64,000 nt of DNA from a virus, in IMG/VR virus record IMGVR_UViG_3300009788_000088. One strand, 5' to 3'. The translations under genes and the position numbers were made by a program. The notes beneath the pieces are model-generated. The model was not told the origin of the DNA and did no database searches. It worked only from the letters and a program-made list of their open reading frames with translations. Below, one piece after another: positions 863-16,937 of the stretch; position 1 is the stretch's first letter; every line of letters begins with the position of its first letter.

Positions 863-880
863 GATAAACCTCCAAGTAAA

Positions 881-1623: not shown

Positions 1624-1624
1624 C

Positions 1625-1960: not shown

Positions 1961-1962
1961 AA

Positions 1963-2322: not shown

Positions 2323-2324
2323 GG

Positions 2325-2690
2325 TTACTCCTTCTTTGAACATGCTTTAACATGGCGATTAAAATTTGCCACTGGTCCCCGAAAATTGTATCGCTGACCG
2401 TTTCCCCAATATCCCACTATTCTCCCTATTCCTTTATTTTTATAAAATGCTGGAAACGTTTTTTTGCAGTGAGGACAGACATAACCAAATAACGGAATTT
2501 CTTTATCTTCCAGTATCACGATTTCCGCTTCGGGGTCAATATGATCCTCACAAATCATGTTTGAGTTTCCGTCATATGGATAATGGTCAGGACCACAAAG
2601 ATATATTTTATCAGCCGGAAAATCTTTTCGGCAAACATAACACGTGGCGTCCTCTTCCGCCGGAAAAATTATGAAAGGTAAGAGGTTCAT
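2325..2690 (-). CDS. hypothetical Cys-rich protein
   Basis: CxxC pairs; packed operon. Confidence 0.6.
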   Translation of the reverse strand: MNLLPFIIFPAEEDATCYVCRKDFPADKIYLCGPDHYPYDGNSNMICEDHIDPEAEIVILEDKEIPLFGYVCPHCKKTFPAFYKNKGIGRIVGYWGNGQRYNFRGPVANFNRHVKACSKKE

Positions 2691-2698
2691 AAATTCAT

Positions 2699-2866
2699 TC
2701 AGACGCCACCAACGACATCCAGTTCCTCTTCTACCGAAAGGTCTTCCCTTTCATCATGTGCCTCATCTTCTCGGCGTAAACATTCCATGCAATCCGGGTC
2801 AGCATAAGGGTCTGAATCATCGAACCCAAGGTCAGCCCCACAACAGCAACATGTTAATCTAGCCAT
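2699..2866 (-). CDS. small acidic Cys-rich protein (55 aa, MARLTCCCCG...)
   Basis: Read manually; GGAGG SD; below ORF-track cutoff. Confidence 0.55.
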   Translation of the reverse strand: MARLTCCCCGADLGFDDSDPYADPDCMECLRREDEAHDEREDLSVEEELDVVGGV

Positions 2867-2878
2867 GATAAACCTCCC

Positions 2879-3217
2879 TTATTTGTCTTTAAATTCCTCA
2901 ACCAGTTTCTCTACCTCTTCGTACCAACCGGGAACAGTATAAAATAATCTGATTGCAGATGTTTCTACTGGAAACGTTTTGAACAACCGCATAAGATTTC
3001 CACTATCTGCCCGATGGACGTTATCAAAAAAAGCCATCCAAAAACCACCAAACCGTCCTGTCTGCCATTTATAAGCGATCTCTTGTTCTGGTTCAAGGAA
3101 TGGATACTTCCTATCAGTTAAACAATAAGGCTCATAATGACCAGCTTCAGTTTCAGCCCTATGCCTGATATCTTCAGTCATATAAAACACCGCCAACGTA
3201 GCCTCGTCTTTGCTCAT
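2879..3217 (-). CDS. hypothetical protein
   Basis: AAGGAG SD, directly after a sigma70 promoter. Confidence 0.65.
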   Translation of the reverse strand: MSKDEATLAVFYMTEDIRHRAETEAGHYEPYCLTDRKYPFLEPEQEIAYKWQTGRFGGFWMAFFDNVHRADSGNLMRLFKTFPVETSAIRLFYTVPGWYEEVEKLVEEFKDK

Positions 3218-3242
3218 TATACTATCTCCTTTCAACATCTAT

Positions 3243-3270
3243 AATGTAACACATTAAGGGATAGTGTCAA
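3243..3270 (-). promoter_or_regulatory. early sigma70-type promoter TTGACA-16-TACATT-ATAGATG
   Basis: Matches the repeated early promoter at 57.5-59.8 kb. Confidence 0.6.
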
Positions 3271-3315
3271 GGAGAAATATATATAAGAAACGTGAATAGA
3301 TTTTGAATAGAAAAG

Positions 3316-3391
3316 TGGTCGGAGTAGGAGGATTCGAACCTCCGTCCCATGGCCCCAAACCATGCGCTAAACCAGTCTCAGCTATACTCCG
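3316..3391 (-). tRNA. tRNA-Pro(TGG)
   Basis: Cloverleaf, CATGG-TT-TGG-GG-CCATG, CCA. Confidence 0.95.
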
Positions 3392-3506
3392 ACATATTTA
3401 CGAATAGAAATGTGAATAGATTGTGCATAGTAACTCCTAACCCACAGGAGTTACTATGCTAGATTGGCCCCAGTAGTAAAGGATGCCTACGTTAAGGGTG
3501 TACGTC

Positions 3507-3731
3507 TTATGCTTTAAGCAACGACCCCAGCCCAAAACGCAGGACTTTCTTATGTGAGAAAGCGAATTCAAACTCAATTTGCTCTGGCTGTCTGAAAAAC
3601 AATTCAGCCATTTTTTCCACAGCGCACGGGCCACAAGGTTCTATAATGGGTTCATCCTGTCTTACCCGAAAAACCTCATAGGTCGTTTTGCATTCTGGAC
3701 ATTTCGCTTTCTGGTTCATTAAAAACGCCAT
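3507..3731 (-). CDS. hypothetical Zn-ribbon protein
   Basis: CPEC...CGPC; GGAG SD. Confidence 0.6.
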   Translation of the reverse strand: MAFLMNQKAKCPECKTTYEVFRVRQDEPIIEPCGPCAVEKMAELFFRQPEQIEFEFAFSHKKVLRFGLGSLLKA

Positions 3732-3750
3732 CTACGTCTCCAAAAATAAT

Positions 3751-3823
3751 TGGTGGAGCGATAGGGAATTGAACCCTAGTTCCTCTGAGTGCAAATCAGC
3801 GATCCAGTCCCGCTGGCCGCCCC
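3751..3823 (-). tRNA. tRNA-Ala(TGC), reduced D arm
   Basis: G3:U70, A73, CTGA-TT-TGC-AC-TCAG, T loop, CCA. Confidence 0.85.
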
Positions 3824-3840
3824 ATATATACCTTCTACAA

Positions 3841-4269
3841 CTATTTATCTTCGTAGGAGAGAAATACCTTTCTACTCATCGAGACAATCTCTCCAACAGT
3901 CTTTTCCATTTCCACCATAGTATCCCTTGATGGTTGCAATTTATGGTGGAAAATTTTCTTGACCAATTCGTGTATCATCTTCCGACCACTATAACAGGCC
4001 AGACAGTAACGAGTGATAGACGGCGCTTCTGTAATATCACTCGGATTCTGTGGGATATCTTCTTCTATCTGCATGGCCGCTGGGGTAAATCCACATAGAT
4101 CACATTGTGGAACAGGAATGGAATATGTGGTAATGTCTTTATCAGCCACCGCCGGGTCTATCACGATAATCTCTTCCCCCACACTTACAGGAGAAGCCGG
4201 ACAATCTCCCCAATGCCCCCCAAGTTTTTTACCTTTACATTTTTTAGACCCATCACAGTCCATTTTCAT
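3841..4269 (-). CDS. hypothetical protein
   Basis: 142 aa ORF, CxxC motifs. Confidence 0.6.
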   Translation of the reverse strand: MKMDCDGSKKCKGKKLGGHWGDCPASPVSVGEEIIVIDPAVADKDITTYSIPVPQCDLCGFTPAAMQIEEDIPQNPSDITEAPSITRYCLACYSGRKMIHELVKKIFHHKLQPSRDTMVEMEKTVGEIVSMSRKVFLSYEDK

Positions 4270-4504
4270 TTATTTCCTTTTCATCAAGACGGGAAAGAAA
4301 AATTCCAATGCGATCCTCCAAACGCTCAGCATCGCTTTTATGAGCAAGCGTGTTATGAGGGGTTTGTGTTATATATTCATAAAAAATCTCATCCCACAAT
4401 TCTTTATAACATTTCATTCTTAATCCTCCTTTTCACCATCCGGTGAAAATCATGTTTTGGGTGAAATTTCATCAGAAGATGGTTTAATTTCAACCACCCC
4501 CTCA

Positions 4505-4792
4505 TTAGTTCAACATCGCTCCCTTTGGAACATTAAGACTTTCTAATAGTTCCGTATTTTGATCTTGCATGTCAACTATAGTGCCGGGAGATGGGTGTTT
4601 ATCCGGTCCATCCCATTTAAGAACAAGGATGTGAGTCCCGTTATTCCAGACAACAAACGGATATACACCCACCATCACAACAATTCCCCGTTGTATCGGA
4701 ACAAGATGAGAGACCGCCAAAATCATTGCCTGTTCGTGAATAGTCAAATCGTGGGTCACTTCTTTTATTTGAAGAGTCTTTTCTCCAGTCAT
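4505..4792 (-). CDS. hypothetical protein
   Basis: ORF with overlapping start/stop. Confidence 0.55.
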   Translation of the reverse strand: MTGEKTLQIKEVTHDLTIHEQAMILAVSHLVPIQRGIVVMVGVYPFVVWNNGTHILVLKWDGPDKHPSPGTIVDMQDQNTELLESLNVPKGAMLN

Positions 4793-5031
4793 AAATCAAC
4801 CTCAAAACAGTATAACTTAATATGCGAATTTTCTGGTTCGCCGGGTTGGACGTAAAATTCTAGCCGCTCTACCTCATACTTCCGAATGATACCTTTGATG
4901 TTCACGAGAAGCCGTTCTCCCGATTTCGGTAAAACGGATAGATGAAAAGTGGATATGGGAGCATTCCCATCCATCAAAAAAACTTTTATCATACCGTTGA
5001 TCCTTCTTGAAAGTCTGGACTCTTTCTCCAC
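4789..5031 (-). CDS. hypothetical protein
   Basis: ORF; start uncertain. Confidence 0.5.
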   Translation of the reverse strand: MEKESRLSRRINGMIKVFLMDGNAPISTFHLSVLPKSGERLLVNIKGIIRKYEVERLEFYVQPGEPENSHIKLYCFEVDL

Positions 5032-5504
5032 CCCGATGGTTCATGTTTCAACCTATTCCCCGTTTGATCAATAAAAGATGCCTGATCCTCATCCCTCAGA
5101 GGTTCCATGGCTTTGTGCATCCTCATAATGATATCAAAAAGATCGGAGTTATCACCTTCCTTGGCCCGTGCAATACAAACCTCCAAAGGCACATCAAAGA
5201 CCGCCCAGATAATCCGAGGGTGCATCATACGCCACATGATCCGGCGCTTCTCTGTGGTGTTAGTAGCATCGATAATAACTCCCCGGTGTCCAGCTTCATA
5301 CAGGGCACGGGTCATAGTCTGGGCGATACCCCACACCATAGGTTCAGCATCCCCATAAAAAGCTTGACCGTGAAGGGCCAACCGGATAGCGTCCGGGTTG
5401 ACGATAGCGTATCCTTTTTCCTTGGCCATCTTTTTGGCCCATGTGGATTTACCGCTCCGGGGGAGACCAATGGTCACTATCATAAGGGTTGACGGGTCAA
5501 TCAT
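4989..5504 (-). CDS. P-loop kinase, polynucleotide 5'-kinase-like (AAA_33; PseT kinase domain only)
   Basis: GLPRSGKST Walker A, D-x-I-R, IIDATN, C-x-x-R motifs. Confidence 0.8.
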   Translation of the reverse strand: MIDPSTLMIVTIGLPRSGKSTWAKKMAKEKGYAIVNPDAIRLALHGQAFYGDAEPMVWGIAQTMTRALYEAGHRGVIIDATNTTEKRRIMWRMMHPRIIWAVFDVPLEVCIARAKEGDNSDLFDIIMRMHKAMEPLRDEDQASFIDQTGNRLKHEPSGWRKSPDFQEGSTV

Positions 5505-5938
5505 TCAAATATTCCCGGCGTAATGAATCGAATTTCTAACCACATATTAAGAAACCTCGTAGCTTCATGAGCCGCATAAACATAATGCAATTCTTCTAAG
5601 CTTTGAACGATAAGCACCAGAACAGGAGTTCTCCCAGTCATACCTGTATAATGAATTATCCGCCCAAACCCCTCTTTCCATTCGTAAGCCCATACTAATT
5701 CAATAACCTCTGATTCGGTTATAATGTCAATCTGACTTTGATCTATAAGAACGGCTCCCACCCCCACTTCTTGATCAGTATAATCCGTAATTAACCCGGC
5801 GTATGCATCCCGGTAATTATCTTTAGTATACTGAAGAGTTTCGACAGTCTCTCCCGATTCCGGGGTATTGGCTATGACCGGAACAGCGAAGACCAAAGAA
5901 AAGGCCAATACTAACAGGATAATACTCAACTTTTTCAT
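5501..5938 (-). CDS. secreted hypothetical protein
   Basis: Signal peptide MKKLSIILLVLAFSLVFAVPVIA; AGGAGG SD. Confidence 0.7.
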   Translation of the reverse strand: MKKLSIILLVLAFSLVFAVPVIANTPESGETVETLQYTKDNYRDAYAGLITDYTDQEVGVGAVLIDQSQIDIITESEVIELVWAYEWKEGFGRIIHYTGMTGRTPVLVLIVQSLEELHYVYAAHEATRFLNMWLEIRFITPGIFE

Positions 5939-5959
5939 AACAACCTCCTGTGAATTATA

Positions 5960-6034
5960 TGGTCCCGGTGATTGGATTCGAACCAATGTGCCCCGCCTTA
6001 TCGGGACGGTGCTAAGCCGCTTAGCTACACCGGG
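5960..6034 (-). tRNA. tRNA-Ile(GAT), C33 variant
   Basis: Cloverleaf, CCGTC-CC-GAT-AA-GGCGG, CCA. Confidence 0.85.
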
Positions 6035-6267
6035 CGACTGTTCTTCCAACATGAGTGGGGATAAAAACCCCAACACCCACATTCTTGGATACCGAATTTG
6101 TATTTCATTTCCTCACCATACTGTTCTTCAATCCAAACCTTTATCTGTTCACCTAGTTCATTCATCATTATAAAAAACAGTTCTTCCTTAATATCCATAT
6201 TATAGATGGTTTTCTGTGTCTTGTCAAAGACTTCAGTATTGAACTTAACCGTTCCAATGAATTCCAT
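6025..6267 (-). CDS. hypothetical protein
   Basis: 80 aa ORF between tRNAs. Confidence 0.5.
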   Translation of the reverse strand: MEFIGTVKFNTEVFDKTQKTIYNMDIKEELFFIMMNELGEQIKVWIEEQYGEEMKYKFGIQECGCWGFYPHSCWKNSRPV

Positions 6268-6283
6268 GTGAATTCCTTATATT

Positions 6284-6358
6284 TGGTGAGTCTGGTAGGG
6301 CTTGAACCTACGGCATTCTGGGTGTAAACCAGATGCTCTCCCACTGAGCTACAGACTC
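6284..6358 (-). tRNA. tRNA-Val(TAC)
   Basis: Cloverleaf, TCTGG-TT-TAC-AC-CCAGA, CCA. Confidence 0.95.
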
Positions 6359-6361
6359 GTT

Positions 6362-6437
6362 TGGTGGGACTGGCTGGTATTGAACCAACTACGCCCTGAT
6401 CTTCAATCAGGCGCTCTACCGTTTGAGCTACAGTCCC
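6362..6437 (-). tRNA. tRNA-Phe(GAA)
   Basis: Cloverleaf, CCTGA-TT-GAA-GA-TCAGG, CCA. Confidence 0.95.
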
Positions 6438-6638
6438 ATTATTGCACCAACATAAAATATGTTTGGTGTGTCAACCTTATTAACAAATATGAAAACCCGT
6501 TTCGACAATTCCTTTGAACCTCTCCAGTAAAGTTTGGGTGTGGTCCAACCAACAACGGTGGAAATCTGTGGTTTAATAAAGGGATTGTCATTTTTGGATA
6601 TAACATCATAATCTGTCCTTTTGGATCATATATTAACC

Positions 6639-6667
6639 ATTATAGCAGTTAATGGTTAATATGTTAC
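6639..6667 (-). promoter_or_regulatory. putative middle promoter GTAACA-17-TATAAT
   Basis: One of five RTAACA-N17-TAnnAW copies; overlaps a 13-bp inverted repeat (6630-6662). Confidence 0.55.
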
Positions 6668-6735
6668 TCATTATCTTTTGACATCATTCGCAGTAAGTAC
6701 CAGTAAAACTAGGTCTTACAGCAATTATTGTCAAG

Positions 6736-6811
6736 TGGTAGGGGTGGCTGGATTCGAACCAGCAACTCTTGAGTTTTGAACCCAATGCCTCTGCCGTTGG
6801 GCCACACCCCC
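6736..6811 (-). tRNA. tRNA-Leu(CAA), short variable loop
   Basis: TTGGG-TT-CAA-AA-CTCAA, A73, CCA. Confidence 0.9.
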
Positions 6812-6814
6812 TTA

Positions 6815-6892
6815 TGGTACGCCTCCCCGGAGTCGAACCGGGAGTCAACAGATTTTAAGTCTGTTTGCGATTGCCAATTAGCATAGAGGCGC
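6815..6892 (-). tRNA. tRNA-Leu(TAA), short variable loop
   Basis: ACAGA-CT-TAA-AA-TCTGT, CCA. Confidence 0.9.
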
Positions 6893-6963
6893 ATAATGAT
6901 ACTTTTATTGTGCATTAAGCAACTATTCTATAGCTTATGTCCTATAAAAGCGACATTATATTT

Positions 6964-7038
6964 TGGCGACTCAGAAGGGAATTGAACCCTCATACACTTG
7001 CTCGACAGGCAAGCGACCTACCAATGGTCCACTGAGCC
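6964..7038 (-). tRNA. tRNA-Asp(GTC)
   Basis: CTTGC-CT-GTC-GA-GCAAG, G73, CCA. Confidence 0.95.
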
Positions 7039-7041
7039 AAT

Positions 7042-7116
7042 TGGGGTAACCGTCCAGAGTTGAACTGGAATCATCCGGGTCACAGCCGGACACTCTACCA
7101 TTGAGTTACGGCCACC
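7042..7116 (-). tRNA. tRNA-His(GTG)
   Basis: TCCGG-CT-GTG-AC-CCGGA, G-1:C73, CCA. Confidence 0.95.
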
Positions 7117-7152
7117 ATTAATGGGGTAATGAAATGTCTAAATAGGGTAATA

Positions 7153-7758
7153 TCACCCCTCCATTACCTCCTTTTCGAAAGTTCTGACGGCCAAGTCACT
7201 ATTCGTGATCAAATACTTGGACGCTTCATCATAATAATCCATCGTGGTGCAGACAACCTCCGATACCCCTGCGTTGATGATCTCAATCAAACAATCCTTA
7301 CAGGGAACCGGGCAATTTATATACATCGTGGTATCTAAAGTTGCGCTACCATTTTTAGCCGCTTGAATAAGTGAATTTCTTTCAGCATGTCCGGCTACAC
7401 AGTATTCAAGACCTTCCCCGGACTTGAAACCAAAGAAGTATCTGGGACATATTAGATCATCTGGATCAGGACCGTAGTCCATCTCACAGACCTTATTTTC
7501 AACCATGGGGTCAATATGATACCGTTCCGAACAAACTGGAACTCCGACTGGGGGACCATTATACCCAGTTGAAACAATGGACTTGTCACGGGTCAGCACT
7601 GCTCCAATTTTCCGGGAGAGACACTGGGAATTACTACCCACAGCATCGGCCACACGCAGGAAATACCCATCCCACCGTACTTGCTTCAGCCGTGCCCGTT
7701 CTGCCCGTTTAGCACCATAATCTCCATCTGGTCCCGGTCCATAAACTACTGTATGCAT
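7153..7758 (-). CDS. cd: dCMP deaminase
   Basis: STGYNGPP, HAERN and PCxxC zinc-deaminase motifs. Confidence 0.92.
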   Translation of the reverse strand: MHTVVYGPGPDGDYGAKRAERARLKQVRWDGYFLRVADAVGSNSQCLSRKIGAVLTRDKSIVSTGYNGPPVGVPVCSERYHIDPMVENKVCEMDYGPDPDDLICPRYFFGFKSGEGLEYCVAGHAERNSLIQAAKNGSATLDTTMYINCPVPCKDCLIEIINAGVSEVVCTTMDYYDEASKYLITNSDLAVRTFEKEVMEG

Positions 7759-7921
7759 TATGATTTCTCCAATGGTTTGTTTTTCAATTGTATTTCCTCA
7801 GAATGACTTTTCCAATCTTCCCCTCTTAAATACTTAGCGGCTATCAACTGTCCCAACCATTGAGGACGATTAATAATCTCCCTAAGAACTTCCTCCATTT
7901 CTATTATTTTTTGTTTAGACA

Positions 7922-8503
7922 TTATCCCTTTCTCCTGAAACACCCTAACGCAAATTCACTGTTCGGTTTCCATCCCAGATAGAACTCCCAATACTTTCCC
8001 TTCTTGTTCCTTGCGGTTTGAAAACTGATGAATGGAAGAGCGATAGCCCACCGTTCTCCGGGTAGAGGCCACATGGTATCCTTCCCGTTCCAATCCTCTC
8101 CTGTCCAGCCCCGGTTATCTCCTCGTTCCCTTGTCCACCAATCCCGTTTGTCCCAGAACCCAAGGACGTACCTGTCAAGATTACAGGTTGGGTTCCTCCA
8201 TCCCCACGCAATTTTTCGAAACCACTGGGGCCACGTCGGATGGAACCAGTCATTTTTTACTGGCGTTCCATCGGCGGGAATGGCGTACACAGGGTCATCA
8301 TCGTTAAGCATCCACCACCACGGATTAATTTTCTGCTTCCATGTAACGGGTGCTTTTGATTTCCGGTAATAATCCTTGGGCCACTCAGACTTACCGTGAG
8401 CAAGATTCACCCCAAGGAAAAACAGAACCACTATGGCCAGAATGATGGGAACCTTCCAAACCATAACCCCTAAAACTCCGAACATTATTAGTCTACCTAT
8501 CAT
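7922..8503 (-). CDS. Trp-rich membrane-anchored protein
   Basis: Hydrophobic N-terminus, WxWRNP motif; start moved clear of tRNA-Arg. Confidence 0.65.
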   Translation of the reverse strand: MIGRLIMFGVLGVMVWKVPIILAIVVLFFLGVNLAHGKSEWPKDYYRKSKAPVTWKQKINPWWWMLNDDDPVYAIPADGTPVKNDWFHPTWPQWFRKIAWGWRNPTCNLDRYVLGFWDKRDWWTRERGDNRGWTGEDWNGKDTMWPLPGERWAIALPFISFQTARNKKGKYWEFYLGWKPNSEFALGCFRRKG

Positions 8504-8521
8504 AACATATCCTTTCAAAAA

Positions 8522-8598
8522 TGGAGCCCCCGGCAAGATTCGAACTTGCATTCCGTCTGGTTCGTAGCCAGATGCGTTCTCCATTACGCAACGGAGGC
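8522..8598 (-). tRNA. tRNA-Arg(ACG)
   Basis: TCTGG-CT-ACG-AA-CCAGA, CCA. Confidence 0.93.
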
Positions 8599-8662
8599 TT
8601 GTATATTTTCATACAAGAACTTGTATACATCAATACAAATTCTTGTATGGCTGTATAAAAAA

Positions 8663-8738
8663 TGGAGCGGATAGAGAGATTCGAACTCTCGCATAAGAGG
8701 GTGGAAGCCTCTCGCCTTAGCCGCTTGGCCATACCCGC
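8663..8738 (-). tRNA. tRNA-Gly(TCC)
   Basis: AGAGG-CT-TCC-AC-CCTCT, U73, CCA. Confidence 0.95.
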
Positions 8739-8906
8739 TAAACTGTGTTTTTCGTAGCATGGGCAGTATTGATAACCATCGAAGCATCAAACCATCTCAA
8801 GTCTTGGCTCTTAGTTAATTCAACCCCAGAAGCCTCAATTTCATGAAGGATGTCGCTTAATGATTCTGCCGCCTCTAATAAGGTCATCAAAACCTCCGAT
8901 ATTATT

Positions 8907-8980
8907 TGGTAGGGGCACAGAGAATCGAACTCCAGTCAGAGGGTTAAAAGCCCACTGCTTTGCCACTAAGCTATACCCCC
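8907..8980 (-). tRNA. tRNA-Lys(TTT)
   Basis: GTGGG-CT-TTT-AA-CCCTC, CCA. Confidence 0.93.
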
Positions 8981-9010
8981 ATATATATTATAACATATCC
9001 ACCGAATAAA

Positions 9011-9289
9011 TCATCTCTCATCAATTTTATGAATACACTCAAACCCAACCCCCTTCTTTGCCAAATTTTGATAATACTCCGGAGCAGGGGGGATTTTCAA
9101 AAAACGTTCTCTTCCCAATAACCTCATCTCAGCATCATATGTTTTCGAAAAATCTTCAAAGGCTTCTTCAGGAGTATCACCTTGTCCGACAATATCTCTC
9201 TGAAGACCCTGTGCCGCAAAAACCCCATCCTCTTCCAAAAGAATGAAAGTTACTTGAGTGTCTTCATCCATTTGTATAAAGTTAATCAT
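9011..9289 (-). CDS. HicB-like fold protein
   Basis: EEDGVFAA...GQGDTPEEA pattern of the HicB N-terminal domain. Confidence 0.55.
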   Translation of the reverse strand: MINFIQMDEDTQVTFILLEEDGVFAAQGLQRDIVGQGDTPEEAFEDFSKTYDAEMRLLGRERFLKIPPAPEYYQNLAKKGVGFECIHKIDER

Positions 9290-9538
9290 TTCTACCGCCC
9301 ATGATATTTCACTTTAAAAAACTCATCTTTATCAACAATCACATGATCCCGTGGAATATTATAACTGTTTTCCATCATTGGGTGAGTATGAAGTTGATCG
9401 ATAGCCCACAATAAATCCTTATATGTTATAGGAGCAACACGAGTTATCATAAAACATCGATAACATAACCACACATTTAATTCCTGACGATACCAAAGCC
9501 CTAATACCTTTTCACAACATTCACATGATTTGTTCATA

Positions 9539-9994
9539 TTATGTTCCCATCCCTTCACCATCCAGCCACTTAAATTCTTCTACTGATAAATATTCTTGAC
9601 ACCCCACACAATAAGTGCCCCCATAAAATTTAGGGTCTCTTGCATGAGTTTCGGCAAGTTCTGAGGTCATTTTTGTTATAGTACCACATCCATTCATCTT
9701 ATCCAAGCCTTTTTGTGTCCAGAACCTTCCACAAATCGGGGATTCACTTTCAGGGTATTCTTCATATTTAACATACCCACATCCTTTGTGTCGTTCCAAT
9801 TCATCCTCATCAAGATCACGAAGAGAATATTTTGGTTGTTTTCCAGAATGAATATATGAATGACGCAAAGGGCGAATAAAACCCTTGGCTCTTTCTTTTT
9901 TGGATAAGACCAAATGAACTTCGTCTTGTCCACCTTCTTCAGAACCCACACCTTTTTTCAACCGTGGATCATTCGGGTCTGTTGTTAATGTCAT
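9539..9994 (-). CDS. hypothetical phage protein
   Basis: 151 aa ORF, AGGAG SD, CG and CxxC motifs. Confidence 0.7.
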   Translation of the reverse strand: MTLTTDPNDPRLKKGVGSEEGGQDEVHLVLSKKERAKGFIRPLRHSYIHSGKQPKYSLRDLDEDELERHKGCGYVKYEEYPESESPICGRFWTQKGLDKMNGCGTITKMTSELAETHARDPKFYGGTYCVGCQEYLSVEEFKWLDGEGMGT

Positions 9995-10003
9995 GATAAC
10001 TCC

Positions 10004-10420
10004 TTATCCTCTGGTAGCCTGAAACATTGCCCACTTCCTTCTACAATTCTTACAGCCGCATTCCCCTTTACATTCCATGGGACAGTCTTCTTTACAACCA
10101 CATGATTTGCTTCCTTCTGGCCGCCAACACCCCTCCATATCATCCCACTCCATCCCGGAATGTACATCCTTGAATCCCTCTTCACAGTCATCACATACCA
10201 GATAACAAATATCAGACTCGTTATCTTCTACGTAAACCCTCCTGTGATCATCACAGTAATACTTCTCACACGAATAGATGTCCTCTCCGTGCATATCTCC
10301 GCAGACGTAGGCTAGACCCCTATCTATCACCTTTTCACAGTCAGGGTGGTCACAGATAGCTGTAAAGCTGTAACCAATCATCCTGCCCTGTGAATCGATC
10401 CCACAATTACCCCATCCCAT
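10004..10420 (-). CDS. Cys-rich hypothetical protein
   Basis: Multiple CxxC; packed operon. Confidence 0.6.
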   Translation of the reverse strand: MGWGNCGIDSQGRMIGYSFTAICDHPDCEKVIDRGLAYVCGDMHGEDIYSCEKYYCDDHRRVYVEDNESDICYLVCDDCEEGFKDVHSGMEWDDMEGCWRPEGSKSCGCKEDCPMECKGECGCKNCRRKWAMFQATRG

Positions 10421-10784
10421 CAGTTTTTCTCCTGACTCCTTGAAACCCAGTTATTTTCGGTGGAGAATCAATCGCATGGAATTCACAGGATCGTTGAATA
10501 TATTTCCCCGGCGGCCACTCCTGTCCAGTAGAAGAACATTCAAAACCTTCTGGCCAATGTTTCATAGCCTTGACCTCTGTCCATCCCTTCATCTCTCCAT
10601 CATGAACGATATAACACTTATCCCCCGGCCGCATTTTCTTCGGGAAATTCGCAACACGGAAGTTGGCAACATCCCCGTTGGCATGAGCGTCTTCCAGTTC
10701 CTGAATATACTCATCCCAATTTACCTTCTTTGGAATGGTTATCATCCAGTCATTGAACTCTTGGACAGCCTCATTGAATCTCAT
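10407..10784 (-). CDS. possible PUA/EVE/ASCH-like protein
   Basis: KMRPGDKCYIVHDG motif; MRFNEA N-terminus. Confidence 0.45.
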   Translation of the reverse strand: MRFNEAVQEFNDWMITIPKKVNWDEYIQELEDAHANGDVANFRVANFPKKMRPGDKCYIVHDGEMKGWTEVKAMKHWPEGFECSSTGQEWPPGKYIQRSCEFHAIDSPPKITGFQGVRRKTDGMG

Positions 10785-11221
10785 TTTTCACTCTCTGTTA
10801 TCTCATACCCATCTAAAGTTATAAATGTGTGCCAGCCACACCCATGAGGACAGATTATACTGGGCGTAACTTTACCCTTATTATCAATCAAATGAGTATC
10901 ACCAATAGATATTAACTTTAAACAAATAGGACACCCAAGAAATAATGTTTTGTTTTTAAACCACTCCCCATGTTTTGGTGGGAATGATTCAGCTTTAATC
11001 ATTCTCATATTGTTTATTACTTGTAACTGTATTTGTAACTTATGCCCCTTTGTACAAACAGCGGTTAACACAGGCACTCTGAGTTTTGTAAACCCAAGAA
11101 ATGTCCCATCTTTAATTATTATTTTAGCTCCACAATACTGACAACCCAATATCTCACTCCTGTTCCTGTTCCTGTTCCCGGCACCTATCCATATAATCCT
11201 GATAATATCCATCTGTTCCAT
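10781..11221 (-). CDS. Zn-binding hypothetical protein
   Basis: CQYC, CPIC, TPSIxCxxGCGWH. Confidence 0.55.
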   Translation of the reverse strand: MEQMDIIRIIWIGAGNRNRNRSEILGCQYCGAKIIIKDGTFLGFTKLRVPVLTAVCTKGHKLQIQLQVINNMRMIKAESFPPKHGEWFKNKTLFLGCPICLKLISIGDTHLIDNKGKVTPSIICPHGCGWHTFITLDGYEITESEK

Positions 11222-11295
11222 GCGCTACATCTCCGTAACACATGGAACAGGAACTACCCTGACCCTCTGGAATCGGTTGACCACATGAAGTACAG

Positions 11296-11490
11296 TTAGG
11301 CATTGCGTGTCTCCTTTATAACTCTTTTAATCAACGGTCCTTTATCGCAATAATCACAAAATTCAAAGGTACTATCTGAAGGCATATATTTAACCCCAGT
11401 GTCTCTACAACGTTTACAATCACAATTACAAATACTGATCTTAGGTCTGCCATAATAAATATTGTAAAGAAGCCCACCGAACTTTTTCAT
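11296..11490 (-). CDS. small Zn-finger protein
   Basis: CxxCxDTG...CxxC; AGGAGG SD. Confidence 0.55.
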   Translation of the reverse strand: MKKFGGLLYNIYYGRPKISICNCDCKRCRDTGVKYMPSDSTFEFCDYCDKGPLIKRVIKETRNA

Positions 11491-11506
11491 TCTGCCTCCT
11501 TATATC

Positions 11507-11578
11507 TGGCGGGAAGTGAAGGAATCGAACCCTCTCCTACGGCTTTGGAGGCCGTTTGGTCACCATGACCTACAACCC
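11507..11578 (-). tRNA. tRNA-Trp(CCA), atypical
   Basis: ACGGC-CT-CCA-AA-GCCGT, G73, CCA; small D loop and two U.U mismatches in acceptor stem. Confidence 0.8.
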
Positions 11579-11581
11579 TTA

Positions 11582-11690
11582 TGGTGCGGCATCCCGGAGG
11601 AATCGAACCTCTCGACTTCACCACCCTTCCGTTTAATGGTCACCCTCAGTTACATCCGGAATGCTGAAGGCGAAGGGAACGGTACTCCGC
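11582..11690 (-). ncRNA. tRNA-like ncRNA (T arm and ACCA end, no anticodon arm)
   Basis: GAGG-TTCGATT-CCTC, ...CCGC-A-CCA, internal 10-bp hairpin. Confidence 0.7.
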
Positions 11691-11698
11691 ATAATTTT

Positions 11699-11774
11699 TG
11701 GTTGGCCCGGTAGGACTTGAACCTACTCCCTTCCCGTTATGAGCGGGACGCTCCCCCGGTTGAGCTACGGGCCA
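11699..11774 (-). tRNA. tRNA(CAT), elongator Met or Ile2
   Basis: TCCCG-CT-CAT-AA-CGGGA, paired 1:72, CCA. Confidence 0.88.
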
Positions 11775-11775
11775 A

Positions 11776-11851
11776 TGGAGCGCCTACAGGGATTCGAACC
11801 CCGATTTAGAAGGGTAGAAACCTCCCGCCTTTTCCATTAGGCTATAGGCGC
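11776..11851 (-). tRNA. tRNA-Arg(TCT)
   Basis: GGAGG-TT-TCT-AC-CCTTC, A20, CCA. Confidence 0.9.
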
Positions 11852-11856
11852 AAAAC

Positions 11857-11944
11857 TGGAGGAAGGAGTGGGATTCGGACCCACGGAGGTGTTACCCTCT
11901 CTAAGTTAGCAACCTAGTGCTTTAGACCACTCAGCCACCCTTCC
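11857..11944 (-). tRNA. tRNA-Ser(GCT)
   Basis: CTAGG-TT-GCT-AA-CTTAG, long variable arm, CCA. Confidence 0.92.
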
Positions 11945-12253
11945 TCAATAAGCACAATCTTGAAGAACCAATTTATCCATACACACCAATTGACCATCAG
12001 TGAATCTGGCGGCGTATTCATACCATTTAACATCATGATTGGTATAAAATCGAATAATACCATGATATTCAGTGTCATGCCACTTAAATCCAATTGAACA
12101 TGCTATCTTTTCCATGAGTCGTCCGGACTTGGTTATCCGATGTAAAGTCAGGAGATTATCCAAACTTTTCGTCTGGAAAGTTCGTTGTGCATCTTTCGGA
12201 AACTCTGGAAGAGGTACACCCTCTTCTACCAGTATGTTGTCATACATCCCCAT
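11945..12253 (-). CDS. hypothetical phage protein (MGMYD...FQTKSL...)
   Basis: GGAGG SD; ORF. Confidence 0.65.
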   Translation of the reverse strand: MGMYDNILVEEGVPLPEFPKDAQRTFQTKSLDNLLTLHRITKSGRLMEKIACSIGFKWHDTEYHGIIRFYTNHDVKWYEYAARFTDGQLVCMDKLVLQDCAY

Positions 12254-12431
12254 CGGGGGCCTCCGTTTTCTGTTGGAACAAACCGGTTCCTTTTTCGTAC
12301 CGTTTAACAATGCCCACTGAACGTTCAATGGCTTGATTCCAAGCCTCATCCGCATATGTGCGTGGTCTCAACACCTTCCCGGCATTCATCTCTGCTATCA
12401 TTCCCTCATATTCCATTTTATCATCCATCAT
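12240..12431 (-). CDS. hypothetical protein
   Basis: ORF with GAGGTG SD. Confidence 0.5.
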   Translation of the reverse strand: MMDDKMEYEGMIAEMNAGKVLRPRTYADEAWNQAIERSVGIVKRYEKGTGLFQQKTEAPDGDV

Positions 12432-12773
12432 GATTCACCTCATCGGGTTCAACTGAACGATAGTAATTCCTCCACATGCAGGACATTCCCATCCTTCGCC
12501 ACCCCGAAGTGAAATTACTGGTTCGGGGGTGACTACCTCTTTCTCACAATGTACACAGGTGTATATCAGATGTTTCAACTCAACACCACCCCCGTCTCTC
12601 TTACCTCCAACCATGTTAAAAAATCTGGTATCCGAAGCAGACACCATTTGTGGATGCAAGACTCAGAGCAAAATACTGGAAGAGGATCACGCTCTTCAAC
12701 AAGATAGCGCTCAATAATACTATACCAATGCCTTTCGTTCCCTATTGGTCCCCTGCATTGTGTACAAATATTA

Positions 12774-13064
12774 TTACCCAGTAAAGTTACCATGCTCATC
12801 ATCCAATAGACCAATAAAGCCGTTTTCCGTGCCTTTCTGGTCTTCATACGGAGCGGCCACCATCCGATAAAGTTCCAACATGGCCATAACCACATCTCCG
12901 ATAATGTTCCGGAGATGTGTATATCTGACAGAACCGTCCTTGAGAAGTCTATGCCAGAGCCGGGTCATAGCATAATTCAGAAGACCGGGACCGTTGATAA
13001 GACGGGCAAGCTCATCTATCGTTTCATCAATCTTGATCCGAAGTTGAGGCTCAATGTACGGCAT
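12774..13064 (-). CDS. hypothetical phage protein (MPYI...GLLNY...ELYR...PYED...ENG)
   Basis: Motif pattern common in phages; function unknown. Confidence 0.7.
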   Translation of the reverse strand: MPYIEPQLRIKIDETIDELARLINGPGLLNYAMTRLWHRLLKDGSVRYTHLRNIIGDVVMAMLELYRMVAAPYEDQKGTENGFIGLLDDEHGNFTG

Positions 13065-13133
13065 TTTCCTTTCCTTTCTTTTTGCGCCGGAATACCGGTA
13101 AACCCCCCGCTCCGACTACATACCCGAACCAGC

Positions 13134-13589
13134 CTATCGAACCACACCCGTTAGAGACGCCGGGTTTGACGGGGGAACCATCGTAGGAGGGATGGCGACA
13201 AAAAGTTCTGGAGAATATATGGATTGGTTTCCATAAGTATCAATAGCCGTCACCGCAACATAATAATACGTTTCCACTTCAGATTCTGGAACGGTCAATG
13301 TATACGTGGCTCCGGTCCCCACTGGCGCAACAAAGTTATCATATTGCCAGACAGTATATCCAGAATAATCACACCCTCCAGTTTCACCTGTTGGCATTTG
13401 CACTGGTGATGACATTGGTGGCCGGGGTGATACTCCCCACCACACAATATAACCAGCCAAATCACCGATAAGGGTTTCGTTACAATTTGTTGTAACTTCT
13501 GCCCAGTTCAAATCGATTTCTCCAGCAATCGCTGGACTTGTAAACATCACCATAACCAATAATAATACCCACACCATCAATTTCTTCAT
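13134..13589 (-). CDS. secreted fibronectin type III-like protein
   Basis: Signal peptide; L-x-W, DLAGY, YYVAVTAIDTYGNQS Fn3 pattern. Confidence 0.75.
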   Translation of the reverse strand: MKKLMVWVLLLVMVMFTSPAIAGEIDLNWAEVTTNCNETLIGDLAGYIVWWGVSPRPPMSSPVQMPTGETGGCDYSGYTVWQYDNFVAPVGTGATYTLTVPESEVETYYYVAVTAIDTYGNQSIYSPELFVAIPPTMVPPSNPASLTGVVR

Positions 13590-13612
13590 TTCAAACTACC
13601 TCCAGTTAAAGG

Positions 13613-13696
13613 TGGAAGAAGGTAAAGGAATCGAACCTTCGGGTGTAACCCCGGCAAGGCTTTCAAGGCCCATTATCCCCATGGATGCTACCTTCT
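13613..13696 (-). tRNA. tRNA-Ser(TGA), probable 8/4 fold
   Basis: 8-bp acceptor AGAAGGTA/TACCTTCT, D tetraloop, variable arm, 4-bp T stem, CCA. Confidence 0.8.
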
Positions 13697-13989
13697 ACAA
13701 CATCTTCCGCAAATTTTTTCGCAAGGGTCACGCAATACCTCTTGCTGTATCTCTTACTCCGAAATGACCGGGAATACATCCGGCCTTTCCAGATAAAGTC
13801 CAATCGGGTCACTGAGAAATTTGGGTAAGTATAGGCCATGACCTCTACGTATCCGTGTGGAGTAATCACCGTCCCATCCAGATAAGTGTCCATCAGGTCA
13901 TCCCTGTTACCATTCCTATATGTCCGGGTCTCAATACATCCACGAACACGGCCAACATCCCAATTATCATTCCAAATTTCTATACCCAT
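13663..13989 (-). CDS. hypothetical protein
   Basis: ORF coupled to the exonuclease stop; 3' end overlaps tRNA-Ser. Confidence 0.55.
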   Translation of the reverse strand: MGIEIWNDNWDVGRVRGCIETRTYRNGNRDDLMDTYLDGTVITPHGYVEVMAYTYPNFSVTRLDFIWKGRMYSRSFRSKRYSKRYCVTLAKKFAEDVVEGSIHGDNGP

Positions 13990-14609
13990 TACTTCAACCT
14001 TGCCAGTCCCGCCCGGAATACCCGGATGGTATTCCACGCATCTTCAATGGCGTCATGGATTGTCCCAGCTTTAATCTCCGCTCTCTTCATACAATCTAAC
14101 AGAGACGGCGGTACTTCATCCGTGGGCTCTATCCAGAGAGTCGTGGGGTCCATGACACGTCTATGCCACGTGCTCCGGGAAACGTTACACTGATTGACCA
14201 AAAACGGAACATCAAATGTTCCCACATTCTTTCCTATAATCGGAATGGGGTTAGGGTTCGTCACTGGCAAGGGAAGTCGTAGATTTATAGCCAACCACTG
14301 CTTCAGGTTTTCCCCAGCTTGTTTAGGACTTTTCACGAACTGTTCAAAATCCTCAAGGTAATCATCCAGTCTACCTTCGTTATGCCATCTGGACAGTCTC
14401 TCAATACGCTTGATGAGATCGGCGTTCATAGCCAATGCCGTTGGGCTTCCTGTGATTTCCTCATAATGTATAAGGATGTGTATTCGGGGAAGGTCTTCCA
14501 CTGGAATCTCTGGCTTTTGAAGGTCATCGATTACGGCCCCGATGGAAAGAACTGAATGCAACTTCGTGTCAAGCCCGGTAGTCTCAATATCCAACGATAC
14601 GTACTTCAC
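13989..14609 (-). CDS. DEDDh 3'-5' exonuclease (DnaQ-like)
   Basis: LDIETTG, N-x-x-x-FD, HDAIEDA motifs. Confidence 0.85.
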   Translation of the reverse strand: MKYVSLDIETTGLDTKLHSVLSIGAVIDDLQKPEIPVEDLPRIHILIHYEEITGSPTALAMNADLIKRIERLSRWHNEGRLDDYLEDFEQFVKSPKQAGENLKQWLAINLRLPLPVTNPNPIPIIGKNVGTFDVPFLVNQCNVSRSTWHRRVMDPTTLWIEPTDEVPPSLLDCMKRAEIKAGTIHDAIEDAWNTIRVFRAGLARLK

Positions 14610-14628
14610 ATGAACCTCCTTTTTAAAA

Positions 14629-14704
14629 TGGTACGGGTGGTAGGAGTCGAACCTACAAAATCTGGTTCCTAAGACCAGCGCCTATGCCGTTCGGCCACAC
14701 CCGC
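14629..14704 (-). tRNA. tRNA-Leu(TAG), short variable loop
   Basis: CTGGT-CT-TAG-GA-ACCAG, CCA. Confidence 0.9.
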
Positions 14705-14812
14705 TTAATTATGCCAACCACAGTCATTACATTCGTGGCGTTCGTAATCACTATTATACCATACTGCATGATAACCACAAGCCGGACATTTCATGACTGC
14801 TCCTTTTAAAGT

Positions 14813-14888
14813 TGGTGACCGCACGGGGAATCGAACCCACGATTGTCAGGGTGAAAACCTGATAGCCTAACCGTTAGCTGATGCGGCC
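14813..14888 (-). tRNA. tRNA-Glu(TTC)
   Basis: TCAGG-TT-TTC-AC-CCTGA, CCA. Confidence 0.92.
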
Positions 14889-14889
14889 A

Positions 14890-15093
14890 TTATCTCATAA
14901 ATTCAAAGTGTCCTTGCGCCTCAAAAAAGGCGGCTGTTTCCGGGGGAACGATATCCCCCCTTTTTTGATGCATCCTGATGTGCTGAACTGCTTCCGCAGT
15001 AGACTGAAAATCCAACACACAGGTTAAACAATGAATAACCAATTCTGATGTAGTGGGGTTATCCCCCTGAATTATGTTAACCTCTTCTTGCAT
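14890..15093 (-). CDS. hypothetical protein (C2H2-like)
   Basis: CxxC...HxxxH; AGGAG SD. Confidence 0.5.
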   Translation of the reverse strand: MQEEVNIIQGDNPTTSELVIHCLTCVLDFQSTAEAVQHIRMHQKRGDIVPPETAAFFEAQGHFEFMR

Positions 15094-15143
15094 GAACCGT
15101 TCTCCTAAAGTACCACTTTTCGTTACAGTACGTAAATGAATGG

Positions 15144-15234
15144 TGGTGGAGAGGGGAGGATTTGAACCTCCGTGTTTACCCAGTGGGACCAGATTTACAG
15201 TCTGGCGCAATCAACCAAACTCTGCCACCTCTCC
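15144..15234 (-). tRNA. tRNA-Tyr(GTA)
   Basis: CCAGA-CT-GTA-AA-TCTGG, variable arm, CCA. Confidence 0.95.
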
Positions 15235-15243
15235 ATAAAAGTT

Positions 15244-15457
15244 CGTGATAGTGTGCCGGATTCTCACCGGGGAGCATCGCCTATTTAAGTAATTGCCGTC
15301 TACCGTATGGTCACCGACAGCACTTCGGCTCTGGGCCGGGATAGCTCTCCAATTTATTTAATTTTGGTGGAACACTGAGCGCTCTTAATATGTGCGATGA
15401 AAGCAGAGCAAGCACCGCAAGCCATTTTTATTCGCTCCATGGCTCCACACTATCACG
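15244..15457 (-). ncRNA. unknown structured RNA, about 214 nt
   Basis: 12-bp closing helix CGTGATAGTGTG/CACACTATCACG, adjacent CCGG-TGAGAAT-CCGG T-loop, several internal stems. Confidence 0.75.
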
Positions 15458-15479
15458 GGACATCCAAAGACGCCCCATT

Positions 15480-15707
15480 TTACAGAGTGACACCTTGCTT
15501 CACAAGATAATCACCCAACGGCTTACCTTTCTTATCCAACCAGTCAACGACTCGTTGGCGAATCCTTTCCTTGCGGGTGGCGGCCATACGGCGGCCACCG
15601 TTCAAGTCAGCAAGAAGTTCTTCACTGAAGCCCTCTTCGATATGCTTGAACTTGGTAAGGATATAGGCATTGGCAAGCTGTTTGTCTGTTGCACCTTTTT
15701 CAGACAT
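15480..15707 (-). CDS. hypothetical protein
   Basis: AGGAGGT SD. Confidence 0.6.
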   Translation of the reverse strand: MSEKGATDKQLANAYILTKFKHIEEGFSEELLADLNGGRRMAATRKERIRQRVVDWLDKKGKPLGDYLVKQGVTL

Positions 15708-15733
15708 GATACTACCTCCTAATGAAAGGGGGT

Positions 15734-16138
15734 TTAGTTTCCCCCCATTGGTAAGGAAGGGTCGCTCTCCTTATCATCAGGATTGGAGTTCTGGTTTCCA
15801 CCCTCCTCATTACCCTCTCCGGGAAGATTTTCACTCCCAGTCGGTTCCGTGGATTCTTCTTCCTCTGGGGGTGAAAGCACTTCATCTTCCCGTGCTTTCT
15901 CATACGTTTTCATGAAAAAATTCACCTGACCCAAAGGCCGTTCAATTGCCTTGCGGACGTGATGGGGCAAAACCTCACCAAATCCTGTGACAGCCTCAAC
16001 TGTCTCTGCAAGAGCTTCCGTAATGTTTGCAAGAGCTACCACCTTTAATTCAGTGTTCTCTTCCAGAACATCATCCACCAACTGCTTCACTTGCTCCATG
16101 ATATTTTCCTCCTTGTTAAGAGCATAATAATGTTTCAT
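15734..16138 (-). CDS. hypothetical protein with acidic tail
   Basis: AGGAGGTG SD or internal start at MEQVK. Confidence 0.6.
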   Translation of the reverse strand: MKHYYALNKEENIMEQVKQLVDDVLEENTELKVVALANITEALAETVEAVTGFGEVLPHHVRKAIERPLGQVNFFMKTYEKAREDEVLSPPEEEESTEPTGSENLPGEGNEEGGNQNSNPDDKESDPSLPMGGN

Positions 16139-16149
16139 GACTAAACTTC

Positions 16150-16460
16150 ACCTCCTATTGGATAATAAGGAAGGAGGCCCAACCCCGTAGCCACCTAAGC
16201 GGCCATTTCTACAGGTGCGTTGGCACTTGTAAGAGTGGGCTTGATTAACGTGGGCCAGCCCACCCACGGGTCTTCCAGCATACCTCATCCGCCATGTCGA
16301 AACCATTTCACCCCCACCCCTCCATATCCCGGAAGTCTTATTGAGTCTCCGCTAATGAGGCGTCAGCGTCTCACTAGGATACAGAGGGGTGGAGGTGCTG
16401 AGAATCGAACTCAGGTCCACAACGTTTCAGTATACCTTCTGTGGCCGAAGCCACGGCGAC
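16150..16460 (-). ncRNA. ssrA: tmRNA, circularly permuted (two-piece)
   Basis: T arm and CACCTCC-A-CC precede GGGGGTGAAATGGTTTCGAC; G3:U; PK1; tag frame 16224-16195 ANAPVEMAA-stop. Confidence 0.92.
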
Positions 16461-16507
16461 CAACATTGATTGAATGTCTACTGCATAGACATTCATGAGG
16501 TAAATCC

Positions 16508-16666
16508 GAATCCATGTAGGCTTCTCCAGCGAAACTGAAGGAAGCAAAAGTTAGCATCTTTTTTAACAGGCCCAGCTTCCAACCCCCTGCTATTGTTTAG
16601 GACGGCCTACAACAAAGCGCCTTATTGTAGGATAGTATTGCTCCGCTGGAGAGCCTACATGGATTC
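16508..16666 (-). ncRNA. unknown structured RNA, about 160 nt
   Basis: 23-bp closing helix with one bulge; internal 12-bp hairpin. Confidence 0.7.
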
Positions 16667-16672
16667 AAAAAC

Positions 16673-16802
16673 GGTGGGAGGTGGGGTTCGAACCCACATT
16701 AGCAAAATGGCCAACCCTTACTTCCTATTCCAGAGACACTCCTTTCATGACAGTAATTTGCTGTCCCTACTCTCAGTATCCCACTTTTTGGATGACTCCC
16801 AC
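16673..16802 (-). ncRNA. tRNA-like RNA with expanded anticodon domain
   Basis: 7-bp acceptor GTGGGAG/CTCCCAC, D arm, GTGGG-TTCGAAC-CCCAC T arm, no encoded CCA. Confidence 0.75.
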
Positions 16803-16812
16803 ATAAATTAAA

Positions 16813-16934
16813 TTCAAAGTTGGTTACCAGCACTGGCCTTCTGTCTCTTTAGGCTAGAAGGTGCACTCAGATAAGGTGGGAAGCTATCCCACTAACCGGC
16901 TTAACCCTGCCCTCAGTTAGAAACCAACTCTGAA
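16813..16934 (-). ncRNA. unknown structured RNA, about 122 nt
   Basis: 13-bp closing helix TTCAGAGTTGGTT/AACCAACTTTGAA, two internal hairpins. Confidence 0.65.
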
Positions 16935-16937
16935 ACT

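Follow-up and report, generated by a model that had tools for sequence, protein, structure and literature searches.

On the minus strand of a phage genome, an RNA element of ~210 nt (15244-15457) lies between a small open reading frame, ORF75, and a tRNA-Tyr gene. The sequences compared here indicate that it is a real, conserved, non-coding and structured RNA of a narrow phage lineage, represented by three variants. We consider it probable that the element is the gene for a stable, structured, non-coding passenger RNA of ~190-215 nt carried in a phage tRNA operon, and we class it as a new family among RNAs of a known kind, the stable RNAs of phage tRNA operons. It is the conservation of the feature, not its folding energy, that shows it to be real. 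All positions refer to the window, that is, the whole stretch of 64,000 nt that was analysed (IMG/VR record IMGVR_UViG_3300009788_000088). An earlier note on this DNA had described a discrete structured RNA at this place, a description borne out by the conservation of the element and by its lack of coding capacity.

The RNA element in its tRNA array

The source virus is an uncultured, distant T4-like myovirus, as judged by PHROG matches to a T4-type portal, a tail sheath, a gp46-like SbcC protein and a DnaB-like helicase. Its portal protein is ~36-41% identical to those of T4-like cyanophages, with no closer relative. Positions 598-18688 of the minus strand hold 25 tRNA genes (25 called by ARAGORN, 23 by Rfam) and a permuted tmRNA (16104-16479, minus strand, called by both), all on the same strand. 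Within this array, the gene order on the minus strand is ORF75 (15707-15480), a hairpin, the RNA, 10 nt and tRNA-Tyr (15234-15144); the RNA starts 23 nt past the ORF75 stop codon and ends 10 nt ahead of the tRNA. No terminator-like site was detected on either side of the RNA, towards ORF75 or towards tRNA-Tyr. [quoted passage not shown] Given this upstream promoter and the lack of a terminator between them, ORF75, the RNA and tRNA-Tyr are probably co-transcribed. Another promoter-like site, at 15505-15477, was rejected, being weak (9/12) and absent as a conserved feature in the two diverged relatives of the locus (L009 and L007, see below).

At least five further units are found at 16500-17800 (minus strand), between tRNA-Cys, tRNA-fMet and the tmRNA, where they are set almost end to end. 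Each is terminally closed by its own 10-24-nt terminal inverted repeats (17799-17680, 17663-17281, 17145-17033, 16934-16813 and 16666-16508, all minus strand). On the strength of these repeats and their arrangement, we read this region as an 'RNA island' of uncatalogued structured RNAs. The hairpin that precedes the RNA element (P0) does not recur ahead of the other island units.

ORF75 (minus strand) encodes 75 residues, is led by a Shine-Dalgarno sequence and belongs to no known family. A low-confidence model (pLDDT 58) makes its product all-helical, and a protein atlas gave no informative look-alike. Neither ORF75 nor ORF67 has relatives outside these phages.

Conservation, relatives and coding capacity

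Relatives of the locus were sought using ORF75, ORF67 and the downstream RNase T-like exonuclease as anchors. The version of the RNA present in the window was assembled without any change in three other samples (L003, L004 and L005), and two diverged variants were recovered from other metagenomes, one in two ENA assemblies (L006/L009) and one in a 6,988-nt Logan contig (L007). Both diverged variants show the identical synteny of ORF75, hairpin, RNA, 10 nt and tRNA-Tyr. Across all collections searched, the distribution of the RNA comprises these three variants only.

With the variable linker excluded, the RNA core differs between the window and L007 at 10 of 177 aligned positions (5.6%), versus 16 of 38 four-fold degenerate sites of ORF67 and ORF75 (42%; Fisher p = 7e-8). 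The RNA core thus evolves several times slower than neutral sites, and having changed far less than the four-fold sites, it must be regarded as a functional element. Identity between the window and L007 amounts to 90% in the 3' domain of the RNA, 74% in tRNA-Tyr, 73% in ORF75, 86% in ORF67 and 66% in the exonuclease gene. About 75 unpaired core positions, including the 13-nt loops, are almost invariant. The linker alone accounts for the largest gaps. Core indels are few and mostly map to loops or junctions; one deletes the middle pair of the closing helix in L007. The L007 RNA is only ~190 nt long because the linker that follows hairpin P3 shrinks from 47 to 20 nt.

The sole internal open reading frame has 28 codons, beginning with an AUG in hairpin P2. 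It is shifted by a 1-nt insertion in L007 and reaches a different stop in L009. The element is therefore non-coding, and a protein-coding reading was rejected on account of the L007 frameshift.

Several features of the neighbouring genes were also noted. The tRNA-Tyr gene (15144-15234 vs L007:381-472) stands at only 74%, whereas tRNA-Glu is 89.5% and tRNA-Leu 92% identical; tRNA-Tyr either evolves unusually fast or was replaced. The interval from tRNA-Glu to tRNA-Leu is occupied by an unlisted 29-codon open reading frame (14705-14794, minus strand) that has the Shine-Dalgarno sequence AAAGGAG and whose stop abuts tRNA-Leu. Its product has the CxxC...CxxC pattern of a zinc-ribbon mini-protein, and the conserved L007 counterpart differs from it by 8 amino acids. 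After tRNA-Leu, inside the tRNA array, lies a gene for an RNase T/DEDD-type 3'-5' exonuclease (13989-14609, minus strand), which in L007 appears to be split into two open reading frames by a frameshift or an assembly error. Homologues of this exonuclease (33-40% identical), some of them labelled oligoribonuclease, are common in large phages, and in at least one further IMG/VR contig (L069) the gene sits among tRNAs and a permuted tmRNA.

The RNA at 15244-15457 had no match in Rfam 15 at gathering scores, in agreement with the statement of the earlier note that no family was recognised; lowering the threshold to E <= 10 gave chance-level matches only. The tRNA family (RF00005) was discarded since neither ARAGORN nor Rfam made a call at 15244-15457, even at E <= 10, and tmRNA likewise, its sole ARAGORN and Rfam call being the gene at 16104-16479, with no match within the RNA at E <= 10. 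The end pairs of the RNA are G-C, U-A and G-C, so that it has no G3.U70, and it carries neither a CCA nor a conserved tag reading frame. The best non-tRNA Rfam match, to the preQ1-II riboswitch (RF01054), reached 24.2 bits (E = 0.09) against a gathering score of 47 and was rejected; it covers P2 and P3, and the aligned CAUAUUA (J2-3) is not conserved in L009 or L007.

Homologue searches returned nothing beyond the three variants. In INPHARED (50,697 phage records), blastn found tRNA-Tyr or chance matches only. Pattern scans of IMG/VR yielded nothing relevant, the 22 matches of one scan all lying inside unrelated coding sequence and the other scans being empty, while a metagenome pattern scan gave 14 matches, all due to chance, and scans of genome contigs gave 0 matches and 7 chance matches. 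As protein anchors in IMG/VR, ORF75 and gp46 gave no locus, and the exonuclease loci were not syntenic. One distant exonuclease homologue, from a collection of 5.8 billion proteins, is located outside any tRNA array. A covariance model of the RNA (R1) found nothing elsewhere in the window, in five whole IMG/VR records or in 900 kb around 80 IMG/VR exonuclease homologues, and with filters off it gave no significant match in the T4 tRNA region. Among RNA sequencing runs, none was listed as containing the stretch.

Fold and alternative pairings

The stems listed in the earlier note, among them (U)GCGGUG/CAUCGC(A), CGGC/GCCG and (U)GCUGUC/GACGGC(A), are all present at 15244-15457 on the minus strand, and RNAfold recovers them with a minimum free energy of -73.1 kcal/mol (z = -3.5 vs shuffles). 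The same helices are recovered in L007, but the relatives fold only weakly better than their shuffles (z = -2.1 for L009 and -1.0 for L007), which calls for caution. In the three-sequence alignment, 99.4% of pair cells are standard pairs, and the seven one-sided changes are all compatible with pairing (C-G to U.G or A-U to G.U). No compensatory double change occurs in this alignment among the 51 pairs of the RNA itself, so that the fold rests on thermodynamics and on transitions that keep the pairs. The adjacent 91-nt tRNA-Tyr shows at least 4 compensatory pairs in the same three genomes; hence, we attribute the missing covariation to unusually strong sequence constraint, not to low divergence. 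A lack of stem covariation, which the earlier note had proposed as grounds for refuting the structure, was thus formally found, but in three near-identical sequences it amounts to a lack of variation and not to a disproof. The secondary-structure model is a plausible fit to these data.

The earlier note had also proposed a 12-bp closing helix. In the window, CGUGAUAGUGUG (15457-15446) indeed pairs with CACACUAUCACG (15255-15244) as a perfect 12-nt inverted repeat, which by our estimate would alone be expected by chance about once per 64 kb. The twelfth pair, C15457-G15244, is A.A in L007, and therefore the conserved closing helix, P1, has 11 bp (5' strand GUGAUAGUGUG, 15446-15456; 3' strand CACACUAUCAC, 15245-15255; minus strand). 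Ten P1 pairs are invariant, one changes from G-C to G.U, and the middle A-U pair is replaced by a bulged G in L007. C15457 can alternatively close the upstream hairpin P0 (15457-15476, minus strand; GGGGCGUC-UUUG-GAUGUCCC), which is kept in all three variants, begins 3 nt past the ORF75 stop codon and abuts P1. P0 shows the only true compensatory change, from U-A to G-C in L007, along with one change from C-G to U.G. This hairpin may protect the ORF75 mRNA at its 3' end, or else form the 5' part of the RNA.

Inside P1, all on the minus strand, two hairpins with 13-nt loops follow each other. P2 (15419-15445; GAGCCAU/AUGGCUU) has undergone three one-sided changes, each of which keeps pairing; the 5' part of its loop L2 (GGAGCGAAUAAAA, 15438-15426) is invariant, and L007 has a 1-nt loop insertion. 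In P3 (15394-15418; GCGGUG/CAUCGC) the stem is invariant in the three variants and the loop L3 (CUUGCUCUGCUUU, 15412-15400) has one change (G to A, in L009). The variable linker (15353-15393) contains two small predicted hairpins, neither of them conserved. Measured from the end of P3 to the invariant UUGGAGAGC block, it spans 47 nt in the window, 37 nt in L009 and 20 nt in L007, and gaps occupy 27 of the 33 columns aligned between the window and L007. The invariant junction block J (UUGGAGAGCUAUC, 15340-15352) comes next; its GAGC and AUC would form the 5' strand of a nested helix, P4, or alternatively its AGAGC would pair with loop L3. The stem of P5 (15326-15338; CGGC-CCAGA-GCCG) is invariant, while its loop differs in sequence and length in both relatives. 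The P6 arm (15287-15325) combines AAG/CUU, GCUGUC/GACGGC, an asymmetric internal loop (GGUG opposite A) and ACC-AUAC-GGU, and it shows one change from G-C to G.U and one loop U to C. The GAU-GCUC segment (15272-15278) supplies the 3' strand of P4 or, read as GCUCC, that of the proposed pseudoknot. P7 (15256-15270; CCGG-UGAGAAU-CCGG), with an invariant stem, abuts the P1 3' strand without a spacer, just as the earlier note had it. The U-rich 10-nt spacer (GAACUUUUAU, 15235-15244) is the 5' leader of tRNA-Tyr, and its UUUUAU is retained in all variants. In the working fold, P1, P2, P3, P4 and P7 meet in one junction, with neighbours 0-2 nt apart except at the linker, and P4 closes a three-way junction bearing P5 and P6.

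K-turns are built from a C-stem, a 3-nt bulge and tandem sheared G.A and A.G pairs, and are kinked in three dimensions. The P6 internal loop reads like such a motif (GUC-GGU-GA-CC ... GG-UA-GAC) and can be written with a G.A followed by an A-U pair. The P6 arm contains the 9-mer GUCGGUGAC, which occurs three times in the island within 3 kb (15310-15318, 17640-17648 and 18329-18337, minus strand) where 0.23 copies are expected; three copies were reached in 0 of 100 shuffles. The 9-mer can be drawn as a K-turn-like stem with a GGU bulge and a G.A both in the RNA and at 18329, and the copy in the 383-nt unit sits in the closing helix of that unit. It may represent a shared protein-binding module, or chance. 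A stretch of the P6 arm (15303-15322, 20 nt) is 75% complementary to 15572-15591, inside the coding region of ORF75, which is probably coincidental.

The hairpin P7 had been described as a T-loop arm. The T-loop pattern consists of five nucleotides in which U1 pairs with A5 and position 4 is a purine. The first base of the P7 loop is U in the window and in L009, where UGAGA fits this pattern, and A in L007, where AGAGA departs from it; P7 is at most a candidate T-loop. In L007, P7 can be written as CCGGA-GAGAA-UCCGG, with a 5-bp stem and a GAGAA loop of the GNRNA pentaloop type, which may resemble phage boxB. ORF75, which in every case immediately precedes the RNA, encodes an arginine-rich helix (RRMAATRKERIRQRVVDW) conserved in L007. 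As a speculation from these sequences, this helix might bind P7 in its boxB-like GNRNA reading.

Both parts of the long-range pseudoknot put forward in the earlier note exist, namely, the P2 loop beginning with GGAGCG and the UGCUCC just before the CCGG arm, but the pseudoknot itself is no more than a candidate. Complementarity between L2 and the 3' segment is at chance level, being reached by about 30% of shuffled loops (p about 0.3); L2 GGAGC(G) and pre-P7 (U)GCUCC are both invariant and hence do not covary; and an equally good nested rival exists. Four invariant segments are in fact mutually complementary: GGAGC in L2, GCUCU in L3, GGAGAGC in J and GCUCC before P7. They can be paired as two pseudoknots, L2 with the pre-P7 segment and L3 with J (scheme A; summed duplex energy -18.3 kcal/mol), or as the nested P4, J with the pre-P7 segment, plus an L2-L3 kissing interaction (scheme B; -17.0 kcal/mol), the two being equal within about 1 kcal/mol. 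RNAfold prefers the nested P4 in two of the three variants (window and L007), and a C-to-U change in L009 turns one P4 pair into U.G without loss of pairing, which weakly favours P4. Elsewhere in the window, targets complementary to L2, L3 or J were found at chance level only.

Possible role and comparison with known phage RNAs

For a passenger RNA, the following processing can be proposed. The RNA would be transcribed with the neighbouring genes and tRNAs as a single precursor. RNase P cleaves at tRNA 5' ends; by cutting there at tRNA-Tyr, it would leave a 10-nt tail (GAACUUUUAU) on the RNA, which exonucleases would shorten as far as P1. The 5' end of the RNA would arise from a second cut, at the border of P0 and P1, after which P0 would cap the ORF75 mRNA. 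With its ends paired and stacked on the T-arm-like P7, the product would resist exonucleases. The P1 and P7 stack measures 15-16 bp and ends without CCA, whereas the tRNA acceptor/T minihelix has 12 bp; for this reason, recognition of the RNA's own 5' end by RNase P is speculative. Considering that ~75 unpaired core positions are near-invariant, the loops are argued to be the working surface: the single-stranded blocks L2, L3, J and the pre-P7 segment may engage in tertiary contacts or serve as binding sites for a protein, of phage or host, with affinity for tRNA-like shapes.

What such an RNA would do in trans, as a scaffold or a decoy, is purely conjectural. In one rather doubtful version, a five-way junction of cloverleaf order would act as a tRNA-shaped ribonucleoprotein scaffold or decoy whose almost invariant loops bind a specific partner, which could be the arginine-rich ORF75 product, a host tRNA-directed enzyme or a defence nuclease, or else the RNA would form an RNA-only assembly, with the complementary loops (L2/L3; J with the pre-P7 segment) pairing between molecules as in ROOL and GOLLD. 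As the variants number only three and are closely related, the role may also be specific to the lineage or cis-acting. In the cis-acting case, the element would be a module for processing or stability that shields the 3' end of the ORF134-ORF75 mRNA after the RNase P cut and insulates the folding of tRNA-Tyr. The placement of the RNA, 23 nt past the ORF75 stop codon and 10 nt before tRNA-Tyr with no terminator among the three, its paired-end elements P0 and P1, and the co-occurrence of ORF75 and the RNA in every locus found all speak for this module. A stable hairpin would suffice for such a task, however, and P0 by itself would already be protective, yet the unpaired core is almost invariant against 42% neutral change, and we consider a purely cis-acting module unlikely.

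The near-equal duplex energies of schemes A and B, the conserved U-run after P1 and the weak preQ1-II match over P2/P3 would suit a bistable or ligand-sensing switch in which two exclusive pairings gate P1 and read-through into tRNA-Tyr and ORF67. This is a good deal less probable, given that the preQ1-II score is far under the gathering score, with its CAUAUUA not conserved, that the U-run has no hairpin directly before it and no regulated open reading frame starts there, that complementarity of such size is at chance level, and that a riboswitch would be unexpected between an open reading frame and a tRNA within an array of similar closed units. It is more improbable still that the RNA is self-cleaving or otherwise catalytic, the ribozyme-like option of the earlier note, and frees itself from the precursor. 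Its compact multi-helix junction with invariant joining segments could be that of a ribozyme, and island units set end to end need some means of separation, but host RNase P, RNase E and RNase III are enough for known phage tRNA precursors; no Rfam ribozyme family matched, even at E <= 10, and no structural signature of a ribozyme was found. We give the least credence to a reading without present function, in which a tRNA- or tmRNA-like gene is decaying or the fold is due to chance. The order of its arms is cloverleaf-like (closing helix, two hairpins, large variable region, T-arm-like hairpin) and the island holds other remodelled tRNA-like units; against this, the core is conserved far beyond the neutral rate, and more than the neighbouring functional tRNA-Tyr, and it gives no tRNA or tmRNA signal at E <= 10.

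The preferred reading, a passenger RNA of the tRNA operon, has its closest parallel in phage T4, whose tRNA gene cluster encodes species 1 RNA (rnaC, 139 nt) and species 2 RNA (rnaD, 119 nt). In T4, a precursor of ~1.75 kb yields the species I and II RNAs along with the eight tRNAs of the phage (PMC2330249), and the roles of species 1 and 2 are still unknown (PMC3014915, PMC9697503). Like rnaC and rnaD, the RNA described here is non-coding, is encoded by a T4-type myovirus within a tRNA cluster, on the same strand as the tRNAs and a few nt from one of their genes, and has no Rfam family. Folded in our analysis, rnaC is closed by a terminal helix whose 3' strand is immediately preceded by a T arm (CCGGG-UUCGAAU-CCCGG), with hairpins inserted between, a layout shared by P1 and P7. 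No sequence or covariance-model similarity connects the RNA with rnaC or rnaD (blastn and model R1), so homology was not found. Moreover, rnaC has a canonical UUCGAAU T-loop and the 7 + 5 bp geometry of a tRNA, whereas P7 has a UGAGAAU or AGAGAAU loop and forms, with P1, a stack of 11 + 4-5 bp; the RNA is also larger and has both a five-way junction and an additional three-way domain. By analogy, the best reading is that it works like T4 rnaC in layout and context, as a separate family.

Other comparisons are more distant. ROOL and GOLLD are large, ornate RNAs of phages and prophages, often encoded close to tRNA islands and themselves without a known function (bioRxiv 10.1101/2024.12.08.627333), and the RNA resembles them in being phage-encoded, beside tRNA genes and elaborately folded in a conserved manner; they differ in their size (about 580 to over 800 nt, vs ~200 nt here), in their presence in Rfam, where the RNA has no match, and in forming multimeric cages. 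With tRNA and the tRNA-like domain of tmRNA, the RNA shares the paired ends stacked on a hairpin with a 7-nt loop and the cloverleaf-like order, here with a very large variable region, but it lacks a CCA, a 7-nt anticodon loop, G3.U70 and a conserved tag frame, and its stack is 15-16 instead of 12 bp. A hairpin with a pyrimidine-rich 13-nt loop able to pair with a purine-rich downstream segment recalls preQ1-II, from which the RNA is set apart by half the gathering score, a non-conserved J2-3 and the lack of a Shine-Dalgarno sequence or start codon to sequester.

The small stable RNAs of the T4 tRNA cluster have gone fifty years without a known function, and ROOL and GOLLD show that an RNA encoded by a phage close to a tRNA island can be an intricate molecular machine. 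The RNA described here is a further, compact family of ~200 nt that is conserved in sequence more tightly than the adjacent functional tRNA, which argues for a sequence-specific job and not for mere structure. An island with several such units makes a good test bed for the roles of the passenger RNAs of phage tRNA operons. If the scaffold or assembly reading is true, the RNA and its neighbours would constitute a phage 'RNA island' that combines several functional RNA classes not described before.
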